Shown: in pieces, positions 5,755 to 20,243 of the stretch
Layout: each line of letters starts with the position of its first letter
Position numbering within the stretch: the stretch's first letter is position 1
Sequence record: MN176217
Direction: 5' to 3' (one strand)
From: Escherichia phage vB_Eco4M-7
DNA length: 64,000 bases
The notes under the pieces: model-generated
What the model was told of the DNA's origin: nothing
The model's database searches: none
The model's input: only the letters and a program-made list of their open reading frames with translations
Position numbers and translations under genes: made by a program

Positions 5755-6180
5755 AGAACATTGATTCGTGTGTTTTGAAGAATGGAATGTGTACAATTGG
5801 TCGCTTTACGCGGCCTTTTTGTCGTTTGGGTCGTGTTTTGTGATAGAATAATTATGACGAGGTGTTTTATTTATTAATTGTGCGGAAATATTTAGAAATA
5901 TATACAAACAGGATTGTTAATATTTTAATAGTGTATGGCTATTGGTCCGTGGTGTTTGTTAGATTCTATCTATGGATTGGATTTTCTTGGGTCGTGGAAC
6001 GTGGTTTTGAACACATTTGATACGCCTAAAATACGGTTAAAAATTAAGCGTATCATGGCTGCAGGCCGCGCCGTTCCTGGATTCCTATTTTCAAAAGTGG
6101 TACACCCTTACGTCATGATACGTCATGGTTTTCTATCCGTAAGAGTGTACAGCCCTTGCCGCGCCTGGCTTGTACATTAA

Positions 6181-6326
6181 TCTTACGGATGATACGGATA
6201 AAACTGAGCATCGTTATATATAGAATTCGAAAAATTAATTAACTCCATTTTAAAAACATTTATATTAATTTTTTTCATATCCTCATACTTATGTTAATTT
6301 ATATATTTAACGTATCATCCGTAAGA
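6181..6326. repeat. inverted-repeat element A: TCTTACGGATGATACG arms flanking ~110 bp AT-rich core
   Basis: 6181-6199 TCTTACGGATGATACGGAT; 6311-6326 is its reverse complement; extra ATACG boxes at 6018, 6112, 6355-6378. Confidence 0.8.
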
Positions 6327-6606
6327 TATAAGTAAAAACAAAGACTTGCGGCAATACGGATGATACGTCATGATACGCTTCAACCAGCCAGCAGCGGCTA
6401 AGTCATTGATTTGCATAACAAGCGGCGAAAGGGATGGATTTCTTTTATACGTATCAAACAGTACACCACGCACCACGGTCCGCAATCCTATTTGCACTAT
6501 GATTTGTGTACGTTTATAGCCATAATGAACATCAATCTGCACTTGAATATAATGTCCATCCATTGTATAATTCACACTATTAATTTGCACTATGGGATTT
6601 TGCACT

Positions 6607-7080
6607 ATGAGTCAAGATTATGTAGCGATGCCTGAAGACTTTGAAGACCCGCGATTCGCAGAGCACAATCAGGCTTTATTCGATGAGTTCATTGACCTTG
6701 TTATTCAGGGCCATGACATGCGCGCAGCTTTTGCACTAGTATTTGGAATGGAAGTTGCAACGGATAACTACACTGGCCAGCGAATCCTTTGCACGCAACG
6801 CAATCCATACTACAAGATGCGCTTCAAAAAGCGTATGGAAGAGATGCCACTCAAGGATTTGTGGAGCGTAAAAGGTGCAATTCACAATTTGGTCAAGCTT
6901 GTGCGTGATCCAGAAGTCGCAGCGTCAGCCAAGCTTAATGCTATTCGTGAACTGAATATCATCTACGACATCACGATGATTGATGAAAACGGCAACAGCA
7001 AGATGGGCCGTTCCATGGACGATTTCTACAAGGATTTTGGAGAGGCGGCCAAAGAAGGCGAGCAATTCTCCCGCCACTAG
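6607..7080 (+). CDS. putative HTH DNA-binding protein, possibly terminase small subunit-like
   Basis: ATG at 6607 overlaps the third TTTGCACTAT motif; N-terminal FDEFIDLVIQGHDMRAAFALVFG resembles small-terminase HTH (recalled pattern, not searched). Confidence 0.35.
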   Translation: MSQDYVAMPEDFEDPRFAEHNQALFDEFIDLVIQGHDMRAAFALVFGMEVATDNYTGQRILCTQRNPYYKMRFKKRMEEMPLKDLWSVKGAIHNLVKLVRDPEVAASAKLNAIRELNIIYDITMIDENGNSKMGRSMDDFYKDFGEAAKEGEQFSRH

Positions 7081-8360: not shown

Positions 8361-8663
8361 ATGACCACTTTAATCTCTTCTATCCTTACTTACGACGAAG
8401 ACCGTTTAACCGTTCGCTCTCTTATCGCCGCCGTTAACGCGGAACTAGAATCCACCATTATTAAGGTCCGCGCGGTCGCTTTCGTCGGCCTTTCCTTCGA
8501 CGATATTAAGTACGCCGAACGTAGCGTCATCCGCTTCGCGAAGACCGATGACGAAGCCGTTACCCTTATCGAGACGGTTACGCCGCGCGGCGAAGCGTTA
8601 ATTATCGTCGAGTATATCGACGTAGAAGGCGATAAGGCTTATAAATATTTTATCGCAAAATAA
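8361..8663 (+). CDS. hypothetical protein
   Basis: ORF track frame 8304..8663, start moved to ATG 8361 after GGGAG; CpG-rich codon choice. Confidence 0.5.
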   Translation: MTTLISSILTYDEDRLTVRSLIAAVNAELESTIIKVRAVAFVGLSFDDIKYAERSVIRFAKTDDEAVTLIETVTPRGEALIIVEYIDVEGDKAYKYFIAK

Positions 8664-8717
8664 CGAAAAAGTGCTTTACTTCTTCGTACACTAAGACTAT
8701 AATGTTTTATATCGAGA
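8664..8717 (+). promoter_or_regulatory. promoter-like element (copy 3)
   Basis: CGAAAAAGTGCTTTACTTCTTCGTACACT, TATAAT 8698-8703, GTTTTATATCGAGA. Confidence 0.5.
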
Positions 8718-8770
8718 GGGGATGAGGTAGCGAATAGGTCGCTACCCTCCCGACTAACTAGGAGAATATT

Positions 8771-9061
8771 ATGATTACTTTAGCCGCTATCCGCGACGCT
8801 CGCGTCGAGACTTCCGAAAATTCCAACGTATTTGGCGAAAAGCTTAAAAACGTCTATCTTTTTAACGTAGACGCAACTATCGAGCCTATTTATGAGCCGA
8901 TCAACTTCCTCGACCTTTACAAGTATCGCGACGAGGACATCGTATCATCCCGCGTAACGATCAACGGCTTCGTCTATACGATTACCGAAATCGGCGGCGA
9001 ATATCTCGCGGTCCCGCAACTCGGCGGCGAAGTAACTTTCTTTAAAATCGTAAGCCTGTAA
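8771..9061 (+). CDS. hypothetical protein
   Basis: ORF track 96 aa; RBS AGGAGAA upstream. Confidence 0.55.
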   Translation: MITLAAIRDARVETSENSNVFGEKLKNVYLFNVDATIEPIYEPINFLDLYKYRDEDIVSSRVTINGFVYTITEIGGEYLAVPQLGGEVTFFKIVSL

Positions 9062-9526: not shown

Positions 9527-9987
9527 AAGGCGCAAAACTTTCCCTTCGTTCCGAACTAAAACGAGAAATATGCCGACCCTTCGCCCGAAAATAGTACGCA
9601 TGCGAAATTACATGCATCTCGAATAATCCCCACCGATACTATCCTACACGCAATCATTCGCTTTCGAATCATTATGCTTCATATTATCATGCGTCGAATC
9701 ATTCGCTTTCGAATTGTAACGCTGGAAACTGTAACGGCGATTGATTATTGCGTTCGTGTGGTTTTTATGGCATGGGTCTTTTGGTGCGTTTTGCTACTTG
9801 ATGGAATTTGCGGTACACTAATCAAAATACGACACATTTGGTCCACTAACTTTTCAAAGAAAAAGTCCTAGACAGTACCGTACTATTTTGTACCCACAGG
9901 AAATTTGCAGTACACTCCTGCGCAGCAGGCAAAATAAAGGGCCGCACTAAGCGACCCACGATTCACGGTTAAAGCAACATCCACCCA

Positions 9988-10389
9988 CTATTCAATCTTA
10001 TGGGCATCACCAAAACCATCAGCAATCTGGCTGATCAACGACTCAATGGACACAGTTTTACCAATTGATCGAGCGGTAATAGCAAGCATATTATCAATCA
10101 AGCCACGATTGACTTCACATGTTCCAGGCTTTAACTCATCTTCAGAACAACCAAAAAGCTGGTCGCGCAGACTTTCAAGAGAACGCTCAATATTTTCCAA
10201 CTTCTCTTCTAAATCGGATTGGCGACGTAAAACCCATGTCAAGTCACGGTTGCCGACTTCCAATCCATCAGAATAGCAAGGTGGAGCGTCAATTTTGATG
10301 CTGGAACTAAAAGCAGTGCCGCTGCCTTTAGTATAAGTATGGCTCATAGAATCATTTTGGCTCATAGAATCATTTTTATTTGACATATC
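9988..10389 (-). CDS. hypothetical protein with tandem N-terminal SMSQNDSMS repeat
   Basis: ORF track frame 9988..10452, start trimmed to ATG with AAGG RBS; tandem 17-nt repeat at 10340-10380. Confidence 0.5.
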   Translation of the reverse strand, partial: DMSNKNDSMSQNDSMSHTYTKGSGTAFSSSIKIDAPPCYSDGLEVGNRDLTWVLRRQSDLEEKLENIERSLESLRDQLFGCSEDELKPGTCEVNRGLIDNMLAITARSIGKTVSIESLISQIADGFGDAHKIE

Positions 10390-14937: not shown

Positions 14938-15152
14938 CAGTCTTCACCTTGAGATTCCAGACAAGTAAGGACAAGCCACGTCATCGGAAGAATCAAAACC
15001 AGAGAAATGAGGGACCAGATAGACCAGCACAAGATGACAGACTTGAATGTGTGAACGTCGCCAAACACAGCAGTAAAACAGAATCCCATTACAAACGCAA
15101 TAGCTGTGGAATGGTTGTCTATGGCTTTGATGGCACGGTCGATGAGTTTCAT
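14937..15152 (-). CDS. small membrane protein (two hydrophobic helices)
   Basis: ORF track 71 aa; AIAFVMGFCFTAVF and LISLVLILPMTWLVL. Confidence 0.45.
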   Translation of the reverse strand: MKLIDRAIKAIDNHSTAIAFVMGFCFTAVFGDVHTFKSVILCWSIWSLISLVLILPMTWLVLTCLESQGED

Positions 15153-15240
15153 ATTACCTCCGGTTTTGAGTTAATATGATTATAACGCAGACTTTCAGAA
15201 AGGCAAACTTTTTGTGAATTATGCCGTCCATGGCATTGTA

Positions 15241-15471
15241 TCAGTGTGAAGACACAATTAGTGTGCCACTTCCCTTTGCGAAAATTTCAACTCCTGGCGG
15301 GATTTCGATTGTGCCGTTAACAGCAATGCCGATCAGCTTGTCATCGGCCTTTTCCTCAAAACAAATTTCAGCAGCGCCGCCGCGAACTTGAATGAGTGCG
15401 CCGGATACGTTTTCGGCAACGGAAATAACGGAAGTATAAGAGGGAGTGAGTTGAATGTTGACTAGGGCCAT
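15241..15471 (-). CDS. small hypothetical protein, possibly cupin-like beta-barrel
   Basis: ORF track 76 aa; Gly-rich pattern loosely reminiscent of small cupins. Confidence 0.35.
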   Translation of the reverse strand: MALVNIQLTPSYTSVISVAENVSGALIQVRGGAAEICFEEKADDKLIGIAVNGTIEIPPGVEIFAKGSGTLIVSSH

Positions 15472-15485
15472 GGTTTACTCCTGAT

Positions 15486-15512
15486 AAAAAAATGGCCAGA
15501 AAGAATCTGGCC
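15486..15512 (-). terminator. terminator-like hairpin with U-tract on minus strand
   Basis: GGCCAG/CTGGCC stem; A7 run at 15486-15492 on plus strand. Confidence 0.4.
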
Positions 15513-15588
15513 GAAAGATCACCCTTTATCCACTACTAAGCTGGAATCATAATTTTACTTGATATAGCTTGTACAAGCAAACTATAAT

Positions 15589-17049
15589 ATGAATAAAATA
15601 TTAACACATAATTGGAAATTCATGTACCAGTTGAATCCTGCTTTAAAAGAAGTCTGGAAGACAAAAGCGCGATACAAAGTAATATACGGCGGTCGTGCAT
15701 CTTCCAAATCGCACGATGCCGCTGGTTTTGCTATTTATTTGGCGGCAAACTTCAAATTAAAATTCCTTTGCGTTCGACAATTCCAGAACAAGATTTCTGA
15801 ATCTGTATATACTCTATTAAAAGACAAAATAGAGATTTCTGATTTCAAAGATGAGTTCAATTTATTAAAGAACTCTATTGAACATAAAAGAACTAAATCT
15901 GAATTTCTATTTTACGGTATCGCACGTAACGTTGATGAAATTAAATCAACAGAAGGTGTTGACGTCCTTTGGTTGGAAGAAGCGCACGCGCTTACTGAAG
16001 AACAGTGGGACATTATTGAGCCGACAATCCGTAAAGAAGGGTCCGAAATATGGATCATCTTTAACCCTGATGAAGAGGCCGATTTCGTCTACCAAAACTT
16101 TGTTATGCGACCGCCGAAGAATGCCATTGTTAAAAAGATAAACTGGCAAGATAATCCATTCTTGTCGCAAACAATGCTGGACGTTATCGCAGGTATGTAC
16201 GAGCGTGACCCGAAAAAGGCAGAGCACGTTTATGGCGGTGTGCCGAAGACTGGCGGCGACAAATCTGTAATCAACCGCGCATTCGTTAAGGCCGCGCTAA
16301 ATCTCCACAAACACCCTATGCTGGGGTGGAGTTTGTCAGGGTCTAACCGTATAGGCTTTGACGTAGCGGACGATGGCGACGACCTTAACGCCACTGCATT
16401 CGTCACAGGAAACGTATTGCGCGGCATCAAGACGTGGGAAGGTCTGGAAGATGAATTGTTGAAATCGGCAAGCGGAGTTTGGAAAGATGCGCTTACATTT
16501 GGCGCTTCTATAACTTATGACGCCATCGGTGTCGGCGCTTTTGCTGGTTCAAAATTTGATGAACTGAACGAGTATGCAATACATGAAAATCCATCATTTC
16601 CAAGAATCGAATTTAATGCGTTCAATGCGCAAGGGTCTGTTGATGATCCTGATGACGTTTTTCTTGAATTACCACACGTTGAAATACTCAATAAAGACCA
16701 TTTCGCAAACATAAAAGCGCAAAAGTGGACTGAAATTGCAGAGAGATTCAGAAAGACATACGAATATGCAACTGGGCAAGCCGTATATCCGACTGATGAA
16801 TTGATTTCAATCGACACCGATGGTATACCGGAACTTGGGATTCCAGCTTGGACCACTGAAGAGATTGAGACGTTTCTTTTTGAGATGTCAGCGCCGCGCA
16901 AAGATACGTCTGTTCTTGGCAAGTTCAAAGTTGAATCCAAAAAGGATATGGCAAAGCGTGGAGTTAAATCACCTAACAAAGCGGACGCAGCAATCATGGC
17001 ATTGATGAAACCAATCGTTGCAGCATCCGGCTTCTTCTCTAACCTTTAA
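15589..17049 (+). CDS. terL: terminase large subunit
   Basis: 486 aa; Walker A YGGRASSKSH near N-terminus; start may be ATG 15622 because a TATAAT box abuts 15589. Confidence 0.8.
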   Translation: MNKILTHNWKFMYQLNPALKEVWKTKARYKVIYGGRASSKSHDAAGFAIYLAANFKLKFLCVRQFQNKISESVYTLLKDKIEISDFKDEFNLLKNSIEHKRTKSEFLFYGIARNVDEIKSTEGVDVLWLEEAHALTEEQWDIIEPTIRKEGSEIWIIFNPDEEADFVYQNFVMRPPKNAIVKKINWQDNPFLSQTMLDVIAGMYERDPKKAEHVYGGVPKTGGDKSVINRAFVKAALNLHKHPMLGWSLSGSNRIGFDVADDGDDLNATAFVTGNVLRGIKTWEGLEDELLKSASGVWKDALTFGASITYDAIGVGAFAGSKFDELNEYAIHENPSFPRIEFNAFNAQGSVDDPDDVFLELPHVEILNKDHFANIKAQKWTEIAERFRKTYEYATGQAVYPTDELISIDTDGIPELGIPAWTTEEIETFLFEMSAPRKDTSVLGKFKVESKKDMAKRGVKSPNKADAAIMALMKPIVAASGFFSNL

Positions 17050-17052
17050 CAA

Positions 17053-17292
17053 TCAAAGCATTCCGTGCTGAAGGTCGAGTTTTCTTGCAGCAAATGACCT
17101 GGCACGGAATCGCTTACCAGCTCTTACTGCTTGCCGAATCTTCTTTTGCATACACTTACGGTCAAAATCGTTGCGGTCAACGGCTTCGAGTAAATCCCGA
17201 CGCAAAGCACCTAGTGTCGACTTTTCGGATACTTCTATGCCCAGCGCGGCTGCAACATCTTTCAAAACATCGAGTTCGGTTAACGTTCTCAT
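17053..17292 (-). CDS. hypothetical protein
   Basis: ORF track 79 aa; opposite strand between terminase and portal. Confidence 0.45.
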   Translation of the reverse strand: MRTLTELDVLKDVAAALGIEVSEKSTLGALRRDLLEAVDRNDFDRKCMQKKIRQAVRAGKRFRARSFAARKLDLQHGML

Positions 17293-17705
17293 TTGATAAT
17301 CCCCTTGATGTCTGATTCTGCCATAAAGATTGGAGTGCCGCTGCCAGGAACAATAGAGCGCGTTACTTTGTCGAACATATCGTTCTCTTCAACTTGAATA
17401 CGATAAAATTTATTTTTGGATGAAGATGGGCACAATCCAATAAATTTACCAATGCCGCGAACGCATTCATCTTCAAAGTATACTGTTTCACCTTGAATGG
17501 ATTCGATGTTTTCAACCGGATACACCTTGCGACCTAAAAGCCATTCATCCATGGTCGCCTGCAACACGTTTCGCGCATCCAAAATCCAAGGGTCAACTGT
17601 GGCACCTTCATATCGCGCAGCAGTGGCTTTTGCCAGCTCTTCATATTCGCACACATTTACTACTTCGCCTTGATGAAGGACGACAAATACAATTGTTGTG
17701 CTCAT
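17289..17705 (-). CDS. hypothetical protein
   Basis: ORF track 138 aa; 4-nt overlap with downstream gene. Confidence 0.5.
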   Translation of the reverse strand: MSTTIVFVVLHQGEVVNVCEYEELAKATAARYEGATVDPWILDARNVLQATMDEWLLGRKVYPVENIESIQGETVYFEDECVRGIGKFIGLCPSSSKNKFYRIQVEENDMFDKVTRSIVPGSGTPIFMAESDIKGIIK

Positions 17706-17800
17706 TTCAATCTCCTTTCGTTTGGTTAACTAAAATATAACTCAAAATGATACAAAAGCAAAATATTTTATGAACTATTTATGATTACTATACATATCAT

Positions 17801-17829
17801 TTGCTTACAAACACATGAATATTTATAAT
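17801..17829 (+). promoter_or_regulatory. sigma70-like promoter TTGCTT-N17-TATAAT
   Basis: -35 17801-17806, -10 17824-17829, upstream of portal RBS AGGTGG. Confidence 0.5.
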
Positions 17830-17867
17830 ATAGATTGATTCCCTTTCACTGTCAGGTGGCGTTAACA

Positions 17868-20243
17868 ATGAAAATTCTTGGCATAAAACTCTGGGAGAAG
17901 ACGCAACCAGAAGCCGAACCAGCGGAGATGCCGCCAGGCGACCCATTGGCACCGTTTGAACGCCTTGAAAGGCGCGGCAGCGGTCAACGCTGGGAAAAGA
18001 CTGAAAGCAATCGACCGACCTTTAAAACGGTTGATGACTTCCCTTTATATGAGCCTGATATCAACGGGGACGGTGTTGCAATCATCAAAGGTCGCTCAGT
18101 AGATTCAGCAACCGTATCCAAAAAAGTTATGGATAATGCCTTAAAGAACATCAGTTCAGAAGGGCAGGTGAATCCATACACAGTGCCTATTCAGCTGCAA
18201 AACTGGTACTTATCGCAATCATTTATCGGATATCAAGCTTGCGCCATCATCGCGCAGCACTGGCTGGTGAACAAGGCTTGTTCCATGGTAGGTCGCGATG
18301 CGGTCCGTAAAGGCTGGGAAGTAAAATCCAGCTCTGAGTCGGAATTGTCAGTACAGGCCAGCGAACGCCTAAAGCAAATTGATAAAGAATTTAATATCAA
18401 AGAGCACTTAGTTGAAGCCGAACGATTCAAGAATATTTTTGGCATTCGCGTCATCATATTTGACGTGCGCAGCGATGACCCAGAATATTATAGCAAACCT
18501 TTTAACATCGATGGTGTGACAAAAGGGTCTTATAAGGGAATCATTCAGGTTGACCCTTATTGGATGATGCCATTCTTGACGTCTGAAAACACTGCGGACC
18601 CTGCATCACAGCATTTCTATGATCCAGAATATTGGGTGATCAGCGGACAACGTTATCACCGCAGCCACCTCATCATCTTGCGCAACGATGAGCCAGCTGA
18701 TATTCTCAAGCCGACTTATATCTATGGCGGCATTCCTCTGACTCAGCAGATTTATGAACGTATCTATGCCGCTGAACGTACCGCTAACGAAGCGCCATTG
18801 CTGGCGATGTCTAAGCGTACAACCACGCTGCGGACCGACGTTGACAAGGCGATTGCCAATGAGCGGTCGTTTGCCGAACGTTTGATGATGTGGATTAAGT
18901 ACCGCGACAACTATGCGGTAAAAGTGCTTGGTCAGAAAGAAGAGATGGACCAGTTTGACATCAACTTGTCAGACTTCGACAGCATCATCATGAACCAGTA
19001 CCAGCTGGTGGCCGCAATCGCAAAAGTTCCGTCGACAAAACTGTTAGGGACGTCACCTAAAGGCTTTAACGCCACTGGTGAGTTCGAAATGGTCAGCTAT
19101 CACGAAGAATTGGAGACTTGTCAGCAGCACGATTTGACGAAGATTCTTGACCGTCACTATAAAATCCTTTTGAAATCTGAAGGTGTTGAAGTCGACGTTA
19201 AAGTGGCATGGGAGCCAGTTGGTTCACTTACTGCTACTCAGCTTGCAGAGATTAACGACAAACGAGCGAATACTGGTAAGACTCTCATTGATGCTGGCGT
19301 CATCTCCCCTGATGAAGAGCGCGACCGCATCAAGGACGACAAAAACAGCGGCTACAACCGTTTGCCAGAAGATACAGCAGAAGAAACCCCAGGGATGTCT
19401 CCAGAGAATATGGCATTGCTTGGCAAGTCTGCTGGTGAAGTTCTGCAAGGCAAAGCCGATATTGAACAGGCCAAAGCTGATGTCGTCAAGATGAGCGGCC
19501 AGTTCTATAGTAAGACTGGTATCATGCCGGAAGGTGCCGCGCGCGGTGAGTTGGCAGAAAACCCTGACAGGGCACCAGTTGAGATTAACATGGATGATAC
19601 CGATGACGAATCAAGCCATCAGGTTGATGTCCTAACGCAACTGAAAGAAGGTCTGGAGGGTATTGCTGACTATTACCTTAAAGAAGGTCAGGATGTGGAT
19701 TTTGACCCTCAAAAAGACGCAAGGTCTGTGCAGCCGTCTACCCTTCCAAGCGTAAAAGGAAATGTGGTGAATTTACGCCACAACGTAGGGAAGATGGATG
19801 CCGCATCGCTGCCTAAGATGAAGTTGCATGGAATGATTCTTGGAATCGAGAATCCTCGCAACAGCATTCGCAGGGGTAACAGCCTTGATGGTGAATGGGC
19901 AGTTAAGATGCCGCACCATTACGGATTCATCAAAGGAACCAAGGGCGCTGATGGTGATGAAGTCGACTGCTTTGTTGGACCAAATATGAAGTCGCCTAAA
20001 GTATTCATCATTAACCAAAATGATAATTATTCTGGCGAATTTGATGAACACAAGTGTATGCTTGGATTCGATTCAGCAGAAGAAGCGAAAGAAGCATATC
20101 AGGCATCATTTGGTAACGGTTGGAATGGATTCGACTCAATCCACGAATTGGATGTAGACTCATTCAAGGAGTGGTTGAAGGGTGATTGCTCTCAAGCATA
20201 TGGAGCACTCAATAATCCTACTAATTCACCGAAGCAAGGTTGA
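17868..20243 (+). CDS. portal protein with acidic linker and C-terminal inorganic pyrophosphatase-like domain
   Basis: Position after terminase, ~790 aa; C-terminal YGFIKGTKGADGDEVDCFVG ... DSAEEAKEAYQASF parallels family I PPase YGYI..T...DGDPVDVLV ... ENAEAAKAEIVASF. Confidence 0.6.
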   Translation: MKILGIKLWEKTQPEAEPAEMPPGDPLAPFERLERRGSGQRWEKTESNRPTFKTVDDFPLYEPDINGDGVAIIKGRSVDSATVSKKVMDNALKNISSEGQVNPYTVPIQLQNWYLSQSFIGYQACAIIAQHWLVNKACSMVGRDAVRKGWEVKSSSESELSVQASERLKQIDKEFNIKEHLVEAERFKNIFGIRVIIFDVRSDDPEYYSKPFNIDGVTKGSYKGIIQVDPYWMMPFLTSENTADPASQHFYDPEYWVISGQRYHRSHLIILRNDEPADILKPTYIYGGIPLTQQIYERIYAAERTANEAPLLAMSKRTTTLRTDVDKAIANERSFAERLMMWIKYRDNYAVKVLGQKEEMDQFDINLSDFDSIIMNQYQLVAAIAKVPSTKLLGTSPKGFNATGEFEMVSYHEELETCQQHDLTKILDRHYKILLKSEGVEVDVKVAWEPVGSLTATQLAEINDKRANTGKTLIDAGVISPDEERDRIKDDKNSGYNRLPEDTAEETPGMSPENMALLGKSAGEVLQGKADIEQAKADVVKMSGQFYSKTGIMPEGAARGELAENPDRAPVEINMDDTDDESSHQVDVLTQLKEGLEGIADYYLKEGQDVDFDPQKDARSVQPSTLPSVKGNVVNLRHNVGKMDAASLPKMKLHGMILGIENPRNSIRRGNSLDGEWAVKMPHHYGFIKGTKGADGDEVDCFVGPNMKSPKVFIINQNDNYSGEFDEHKCMLGFDSAEEAKEAYQASFGNGWNGFDSIHELDVDSFKEWLKGDCSQAYGALNNPTNSPKQG

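Follow-up and report, generated by a model that had tools for sequence, protein, structure and literature searches.

Two antisense genes between the large terminase and portal genes of Escherichia phage vB_Eco4M-7, apparently the smallest version of an ancestral accessory cassette

Between the genes for the large terminase subunit (TerL) and the portal protein of Escherichia phage vB_Eco4M-7 (genus Wifcevirus) lie two small open reading frames (ORFs) on the minus strand, here called gene A and gene B. We analyzed them in a 64,000-nucleotide stretch of sequence record MN176217 (the window, to which all positions refer unless a relative is named). The sequence agrees at 100% identity with that of phage vB_Eco4M-7n (PP596836). 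A first-pass annotation, made by a model from the letters of the window, had described two minus-strand ORFs of 138 and 79 residues, overlapping by 4 nt and read against the flow of a packaging operon; the ORF list and the sequence confirm the pair, its overlap and its place between TerL and portal (Table 1). The ATGA in which A stops and B starts indicates translational coupling, as read from the sequence, and each gene is preceded by a Shine-Dalgarno sequence: AAGGAGA (17717 to 17711), 5 nt ahead of the ATG of A, and AAGGGGA (17306 to 17300), 7 nt ahead of that of B. B converges with TerL, leaving 3 nt between the two stop codons. The antisense orientation stands; the operon does not. TerL stands alone on the plus strand, flanked on either side by minus-strand genes, and the small terminase (TerS) is a 162-residue ORF 8.5 kb away at 6592-7080 (+), matched by phmmer at E 1.8e-34 to PDB 7uxe, 'Small terminase', so that there is no packaging operon to interrupt.

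Far from being tightly conserved, as had been assumed, the junction between TerL and portal varied from 2 to 14 genes within the clade when compared across relatives. Antisense genes at this position number five in Pantoea phage Kyle (Kylevirus), four in L004 (a sister metagenomic phage whose TerL is ~90% identical), six, five and seven in the relatives L013, L014 and L015, seven in Serratia phage WR01 (Myosmarvirus), and 12 and 14 in the Pseudomonas phages F8 and 14-1 (Pbunavirus); Burkholderia phage Maja has two small co-directional genes instead. Wifcevirus itself has the opposite-strand block between TerL and portal, led by A, by which the cassette is recognized. In Wifcevirus, L004, L013, L014, L015, Kyle and Pbunavirus, A is the first cassette gene beside portal, and the cassette is read divergently from portal. 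A was not found in Myosmarvirus, despite the homologous TerL and portal there.

Among the enterobacterial-type relatives the cassette follows a common order: A, a lipoprotein trypsin-like protease, B, zero to three small genes, and a DUF2786/DUF7168 gene. The Trypsin_2 protease (181-202 residues) sits between A and B in L004, L014, L015 and Kyle. It has a lipoprotein signal peptide with a lipobox (MKK..LAGC) and a GMSGG serine motif, features that mark it as a phage-encoded, exported lipoprotein protease, for which envelope remodeling, exclusion or lysis are possible roles. L013 retains a short remnant of this gene. In each of these genomes a homolog of B comes after the protease, and in L013 after the remnant; B is 65% identical to the L004 homolog (E 1e-39), and those in L013, L014, L015 and Kyle were recovered by hmmsearch at E 4e-20 to 4e-14. 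All six enterobacterial-type lineages have both A and B, and no B homolog was detectable in Pbunavirus or Myosmarvirus. The most widely shared cassette gene encodes the DUF2786/DUF7168 protein (phrog_421; 242-259 residues), on which published work on DUF2786 gave no functional lead. It is carried by L004, Kyle, WR01, F8, 14-1 and L013-L015, always nearest the TerL 3′ end or overlapping TerL, and is absent from Wifcevirus, which has neither the protease nor anything after B.

Gene order across these genomes argues that an antisense block at the junction is ancestral to a multi-genus clade, of which Wifcevirus has the smallest version. Parsimony favors a history in which the protease and all genes downstream of B were lost from Wifcevirus by deletion. 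Such a loss would have brought A and B to abut, making their adjacency secondary, and the 45-residue remnant in L013 documents a deletion route to that arrangement. The description of the pair as an insertion is therefore not upheld: the block appears ancestral across the clade, and the GC content of A and B matches that of the genome, with no anomaly.

Table 1. Features of the A-B locus in the window, and cassette genes of relatives (positions in the relatives' own records).
Feature	Position	Strand	Description
Gene A	17289..17705	-	138 aa, ATG start; from ORF list and sequence
Gene A protein			138 aa, 15.5 kDa, pI 4.7; phrog_5124 (F8 ORF016 / 14-1 gp17)
Gene B	17053..17292	-	79 aa, ATG start; from ORF list and sequence
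Gene B protein			79 aa, 9.0 kDa, pI 10.3, C-terminal half pI 12; matches no known family
ATGA overlap, A stop / B start	17289..17292	-	Plus-strand 'tcat', read from sequence
Hairpin in B 3′ coding end	17060..17110		9-bp outer stem ATTCCGTGC/GCACGGAAT plus inner stem
AT-rich divergent spacer	17706..17867		162 bp; GC 0.25-0.29 vs ~0.46 in flanks
Candidate sigma70-like promoter, A-B	17761-17734	-	TTGCTT-N16-TATATT; inferred transcription start site near 17727
Candidate sigma70-like promoter, portal	17801..17829	+	TTGCTT-N17-TATAAT; back to back with A-B promoter
TerL	15622..17049	+	Pfam PF04466 at 3e-37; PDB 8dkr / 4idh matches
Portal	17868..20243	+	PF06381 at 4e-88; divergent from A
Protease gene, L004	6411-7019		
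Protease gene, L014	6414-7013		
Protease gene, L015	6426-6998		
Protease gene, L002 (Kyle)	8414-8959		
Protease remnant, L013	3250-3387		45 aa; signal peptide with lipobox fused to protease C-terminal tail
DUF2786/DUF7168 gene, L004	7311-8072		
DUF2786/DUF7168 gene, L002 (Kyle)	9587-10336		
DUF2786/DUF7168 gene, L008	7055-7801		
DUF2786/DUF7168 gene, L011	3994-4773		
DUF2786/DUF7168 gene, L013-L015			Also present

Both genes were found in all 28 Wifcevirus records (28/28), where they are annotated throughout as hypothetical proteins. Across these records the amino-acid identity is 93-100% for A and 96-100% for B, at a DNA identity of 91-97%. The pairwise ratio of nonsynonymous to synonymous substitution rates (dN/dS) ranges from 0.07 to 0.23 for A and lies mostly within 0.03-0.18 for B, compared with 0.005-0.025 for TerL, and the dN of A and B is 5-10 times that of TerL or portal. 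Homologs of each occur in other genera at identities down to about 30%. These comparisons identify A and B as real protein-coding genes under purifying selection, not chance ORFs, which by the same substitution rates evolve about 5-10 times faster than their structural neighbors. Of the two outcomes that the first-pass annotation had named as telling against it, neither emerged: the ORFs are conserved, and no homolog with a known ordinary function was found.

The two families are small. That of A comprises four 50%-identity clusters among 1.8 billion representatives, and that of B four 90%-identity clusters among 5.8 billion. Searches of 5,426 complete E. coli genomes and of 72,556 plasmids returned no match to either gene, and all homologs lie on virulent-phage-like contigs. 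Two contigs depart from the general pattern. In L006, a Wifcevirus-like 68.6-kb phage contig of E. coli assembly GCA_018093385.1, A (6001-6417) has 79.7% nucleotide identity to that of the window and a dS of 1.24, while the flanking B, TerL and portal are 97-98% identical with a dS of ~0.1; this divergent A is a gene-sized recombinant patch from an unsampled lineage. In L005 the A homolog (6001-6471) is called as 156 residues with an unrelated C-terminus, owing to a 1-nt deletion in an A5 homopolymer after which the codons are otherwise intact. Gene decay was rejected as an explanation of this frameshift; an error in the assembly, or else a mutation that arose very recently, is the probable cause.

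The family of A extends into Pbunavirus. A matches phrog_5124 at E 2.7e-4, and F8 ORF016 matches the same group at 6.5e-82; an A-family hidden Markov model recovers F8 ORF016 at E 1.6e-11 by hmmsearch (BLASTP 3e-8), and in the reverse direction tblastn with F8 ORF016 as query recovers a Wifcevirus record (2e-4). The similarity covers the full length of the protein, and both genes lie beside portal. The F8 ORF016 protein occurs in 299 phage records, almost all of them Pbunavirus, in which B is not detectable.

The structure model of A, built from 8 sequences, has a mean predicted local distance difference test score (pLDDT) of 77.7. It comprises an N-terminal ββαβ unit (residues 3-43), a low-confidence helix (44-58), and an all-β C-terminal domain. 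In this model the C-terminal domain is a five-stranded small β-barrel of the SH3/Tudor/KOW type, a resemblance at the level of fold only. By sequence, A did not belong to the Pfam KOW, Tudor or CarD_TRCF_RID profiles: its sole Pfam match, to CarD_TRCF_RID, was sub-threshold (E 0.17; 12.4 bits vs a cut-off of 23) and absent in homologs. A fold search of BFVD returned only A itself and the Kyle homolog, and profiles of A and B run against PDB sequences gave noise only.

The AlphaFold2 model of B (pLDDT 84.6) consists of a helix (residues 6-17), a turn, and a single long helix (27-78). Searches of the PDB, Foldseek, Pfam and NCBIfam yielded no significant fold or family match. Several specific identities were considered for B and rejected. 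It is not the missing small terminase, as it had no PDB match to TerS, which is the ORF at 6592-7080 instead. A relation to 14-1 gp10 was suggested by BLASTP (E 0.006) but not by profile search (E 0.54). A helix-extended-helix/SAP/Rho_N motif had been noticed by eye in the B N-terminus, but comparison of the B alignment with the E. coli Rho N-terminus by hhalign gave a probability of 0.3%. For a LEM/SAP-like fold, the Foldseek matches were not significant (E 5-6) and there was no Pfam match.

The AT-rich region that the first-pass annotation had noticed beside the pair was borne out as the 162-bp spacer between A and portal, which contains two candidate promoters. The spacer is strongly conserved even in L004, where coding DNA is only 60-78% identical. 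The hexamers of both candidate promoters are kept in L004 and the spacers between them vary; in 14-1 an analogous sigma70 promoter is annotated ahead of the portal gene. A scanner placed the minus-strand sigma70 site at 17855-17827, which we retain as an alternative only; the TTGCTT-N16-TATATT site is preferred because both of its hexamers are conserved in L004. The window has 4 occurrences of the pattern TTGCTT-N15-19-TATAWT, where 0.18 would be expected. More broadly, candidate promoters with a TTGC(C/T)T -35 element and a near-perfect -10 element lie at 1050, 2303, 15206(-), 17761(-), 17801, 22536, 24474, 36898, 57130(-) and 62996, and this unusual -35 may be a phage-typical promoter variant.

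No canonical terminator was found between the convergent B and TerL genes, and no Rfam match was found in 15000-18500. A hairpin does lie within the 3′ coding end of B, with free energies of -27.6 and -28.6 kcal/mol (z -2.45 and -3.14). It is invariant in 5 Wifcevirus copies and is not complementary in L004, whose B does not abut TerL; it may mark the 3′ ends, or act as a terminator, of the convergent A-B and TerL transcripts.

On balance, we favor the reading that A and B are non-structural accessory genes retained from the ancestral antisense portal-TerL cassette, which we regard as fairly probable and for which we infer the following mechanism. The two genes would be transcribed as one bicistronic mRNA from the sigma70-like promoter, ending at the hairpin in B, and their products would act in the infected cell and not in the virion, each independently. 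Through its KOW/Tudor-like barrel A would bind a partner, either protein or RNA, most likely a component of the host gene-expression machinery or a non-structural phage partner, and the very basic long C-terminal helix of B would bind nucleic acid or an acidic partner. Published particle mass spectrometry, which detected 33 proteins in vB_Eco4M-7 and 28 in ECML-117, found vB_Eco4M-7_34 and _35 in neither; it did detect the portal (_36) and a 7.8-kDa neighbor (_32) (PMC7048862). By gene order _34 and _35 are B and A, and their absence from particles lends some slight support to a non-structural role. The corresponding Pbunavirus block is regarded as an early region of the genome (PMC8085984). 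Two ORFan proteins of 14-1 have proven host targets: that of gp11 (YIP) is the diguanylate cyclase YfiN, and that of gp12 is RNA polymerase (RNAP; alpha subunit), to which it binds, inhibiting transcription (PMC8085984; PMC10914365). The genes for both lie within the TerL-portal antisense block of that phage (gp04-gp17). The toxicity screen of 38 Pbunavirus ORFans (De Smet et al. 2021) does not say if gp17 was among them.

Several observations weigh against this reading. For proteins this small, absence from mass spectrometry is weak negative evidence. A is fixed beside portal across Pseudomonas, Pantoea and Escherichia phages, while genes evidently specific to the host, YIP for one, turn over, and so fixed a position could suggest a phage-internal role in regulation or assembly. 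The independence of A and B is drawn from gene order, and the two occur together in six enterobacterial-type lineages. Finally, promoters of the TTGC(C/T)T type also precede TerS, portal, the prohead protease and tail genes; as these genes represent every class, no temporal class can be deduced for A-B, and promoter type was dropped as uninformative on the timing of expression.

That A and/or B might act strictly in anti-defense or superinfection exclusion, by inhibiting an immune system or blocking secondary infection, seems unlikely to us. In its favor, genes turn over in this variable accessory cassette, A is a small acidic protein, and the exported lipoprotein protease of the relatives' cassettes could act at the envelope. 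The recombinant patch in L006 lies exactly over A (dS 1.24 vs ~0.1 in the flanks), and gene-sized patches of this sort are typical of genes under host-driven diversification. Neither protein nevertheless matches a characterized one, and PHROGs, Pfam and BFVD give neither such a label, although no dedicated anti-defense library was searched. Overall dN/dS is low, and A is kept across phages whose hosts differ widely, as inhibitors of strain-specific defense seldom are. Wifcevirus phages, distant relatives of Pbunavirus, are moreover reported to be strongly restricted by the cryptic-prophage immunity of E. coli K-12 (bioRxiv 10.1101/2024.09.12.612763) and hence not obviously well armed.

A role in packaging or head morphogenesis, in which A and/or B would aid the terminase, the portal or procapsid assembly, is slightly less likely still; in one variant B might help by binding DNA and A might chaperone assembly. 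In three genera A keeps its place immediately next to portal, the back-to-back A-B and portal promoters share the TTGCTT type, both genes were kept in Wifcevirus while their neighbors were lost, and B is strongly basic. Against such a role, TerS is encoded elsewhere and B is dissimilar to it; Pbunavirus, with homologous TerL and portal, has no B, and Myosmarvirus, with the same homologies, has neither A nor B; and the cassette holds genes of unrelated function, among them those for gp12 (the RNAP inhibitor), gp11 (the peptide that binds YfiN) and an exported lipoprotein protease. Neither protein was detected in virions, and the dN of both, as given above, is several times higher than that of TerL or portal.

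A more ambitious proposal receives comparably little credence from us: that A is a KOW-like factor docking on a conserved component of the proteobacterial transcription or translation machinery with B as its cofactor, the two forming a new module for host takeover or anti-defense. The candidate targets of A would then include RNAP, Rho and NusG partners, and B would be a lineage-specific, nucleic-acid-binding protein. The KOW/Tudor/Sm small β-barrel fold is very widespread.

It is more doubtful again that A and/or B are local transcription regulators, controlling the portal and A-B promoters in an early/late switch. A is always found at a divergent promoter region of unusually conserved sequence, B is basic and helical, and 8-bp inverted repeats flank the promoters in the spacer. 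Those repeats are, however, AT-only 8-mers that are not conserved in L004; A is acidic; neither protein has a recognizable DNA-binding domain (helix-turn-helix, ribbon-helix-helix or AbrB); and B is absent from Pbunavirus despite the same promoter arrangement.

Hardly tenable is a toxin-antitoxin-like module, as suggested by the first-pass annotation, or an abortive one, with one product toxic, the other neutralizing it, and the unit serving exclusion or addiction: the layout is that of a type II system (two small, adjacent, co-oriented genes coupled by a 4-nt ATGA overlap, with opposite charges and a promoter directly upstream), and A and B do occur together in all six enterobacterial-type lineages, but their adjacency is broken by the protease or its remnant in five lineages (L004, L013, L014, L015 and Kyle), A occurs without detectable B in the 299 records, almost all Pbunavirus, and no toxin, antitoxin or defense match was returned by Pfam, NCBIfam or PADLOC. 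Nor were homologs found in the E. coli genomes and plasmids searched, or outside the phage clade among the 1.8 billion representatives, so that of the marks of a type II module (conserved adjacency, a recognized family or fold, and presence on bacterial replicons) the pair has none.

Some observations concern the neighboring genes. The TerS ORF belongs to phrog_4783, which is labelled 'unknown function'; the entry it matches, PDB 7uxe (10 chains), is the TerS of Pbunavirus E217. A sigma70-like promoter lies just ahead of the ORF at 6543-6571 (TTGAAT-17-TATAAT). The longest ORF for TerL starts at 15589, and a sigma70-like promoter matching at 11/12 positions occupies 15559-15588 (+; TTGATA-18-TATAAT). 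The true start of TerL is probably 15622, since that promoter ends at 15588, the alignment of homologs begins at residue 12, and relatives annotate a protein of 475 residues. At its C-terminus the portal protein has an InPase domain (residues 649-771; PF18823, E 3e-46), and this fusion is conserved in L004, L005, L006 and L015; elsewhere the domain is known from large polyvalent virion proteins, DarB-like ones among them. A 76-residue ORF of ~7.8 kDa (15241-15471, -) lies immediately upstream of TerL on the other strand, with a terminator-like hairpin just upstream of the ORF at 15512-15494 (minus strand). The position and mass of this ORF fit vB_Eco4M-7_32, which had a high mass spectrometry score (PMC7048862), and its product would be a small protein associated with the virion whose gene lies outside the structural module.

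Part of this picture was already available: A and B had been annotated as hypothetical proteins, the family of A is an existing PHROG, and an antisense block has been recognized in PB1-like phages for years. What is added here is the link between Wifcevirus A and Pbunavirus ORF016/gp17, a reconstruction of how A and B became neighbors, fold-level descriptions of both proteins, and the rejection of the toxin-antitoxin and insertion readings. The terminase-portal junction in this phage group would accordingly be seen as a long-standing variable accessory slot, of which Wifcevirus has the minimal two-gene version. The real TerS of Wifcevirus has also been located, though it is annotated merely as hypothetical. 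The locus itself is ordinary and by itself raises no new biological question. Through the link to ORF016/gp17, a future result on either protein carries over to the other, and phrog_5124 has a constant place in over 300 Pbunavirus, Kylevirus and Wifcevirus genomes, those of therapeutic phages among them. Since A and B were kept while the protease and DUF2786 genes were lost, they are sensible first targets for deletion, and vB_Eco4M-7 already has a synthetic-genome platform (PMC11074155).

Set beside known systems, the proteins with which the barrel of A might be compared, namely the NusG/Spt5 KOW domain, the Mtr4/Ski2 KOW insertion, CarD/TRCF-RID and YaeO/Rof, have no significant sequence match to it. 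Its counterpart is ORF016/gp17 of Pbunavirus, which is 24-27% identical over the full length, of similar size (133 vs 138 residues), likewise acidic in pI, and likewise encoded by the first antisense gene by the portal promoter; it differs in having a shorter linker helix region and a C-terminal extension, and it is followed by 11-13 further genes, none of them a detectable B homolog. The blocks as wholes differ in size (2 genes in Wifcevirus vs 12-14 in Pbunavirus) and in content, Wifcevirus lacking homologs of gp11, gp12 and the DUF2786 gene; early-region status belongs to the Pbunavirus block, whereas the Wifcevirus pair has a candidate sigma70-like promoter only. They nevertheless occupy the same genomic slot in the same orientation and have A in common, and the phrog_421 DUF2786/DUF7168 gene is shared between the Pbunavirus block and the sister lineages of Wifcevirus.

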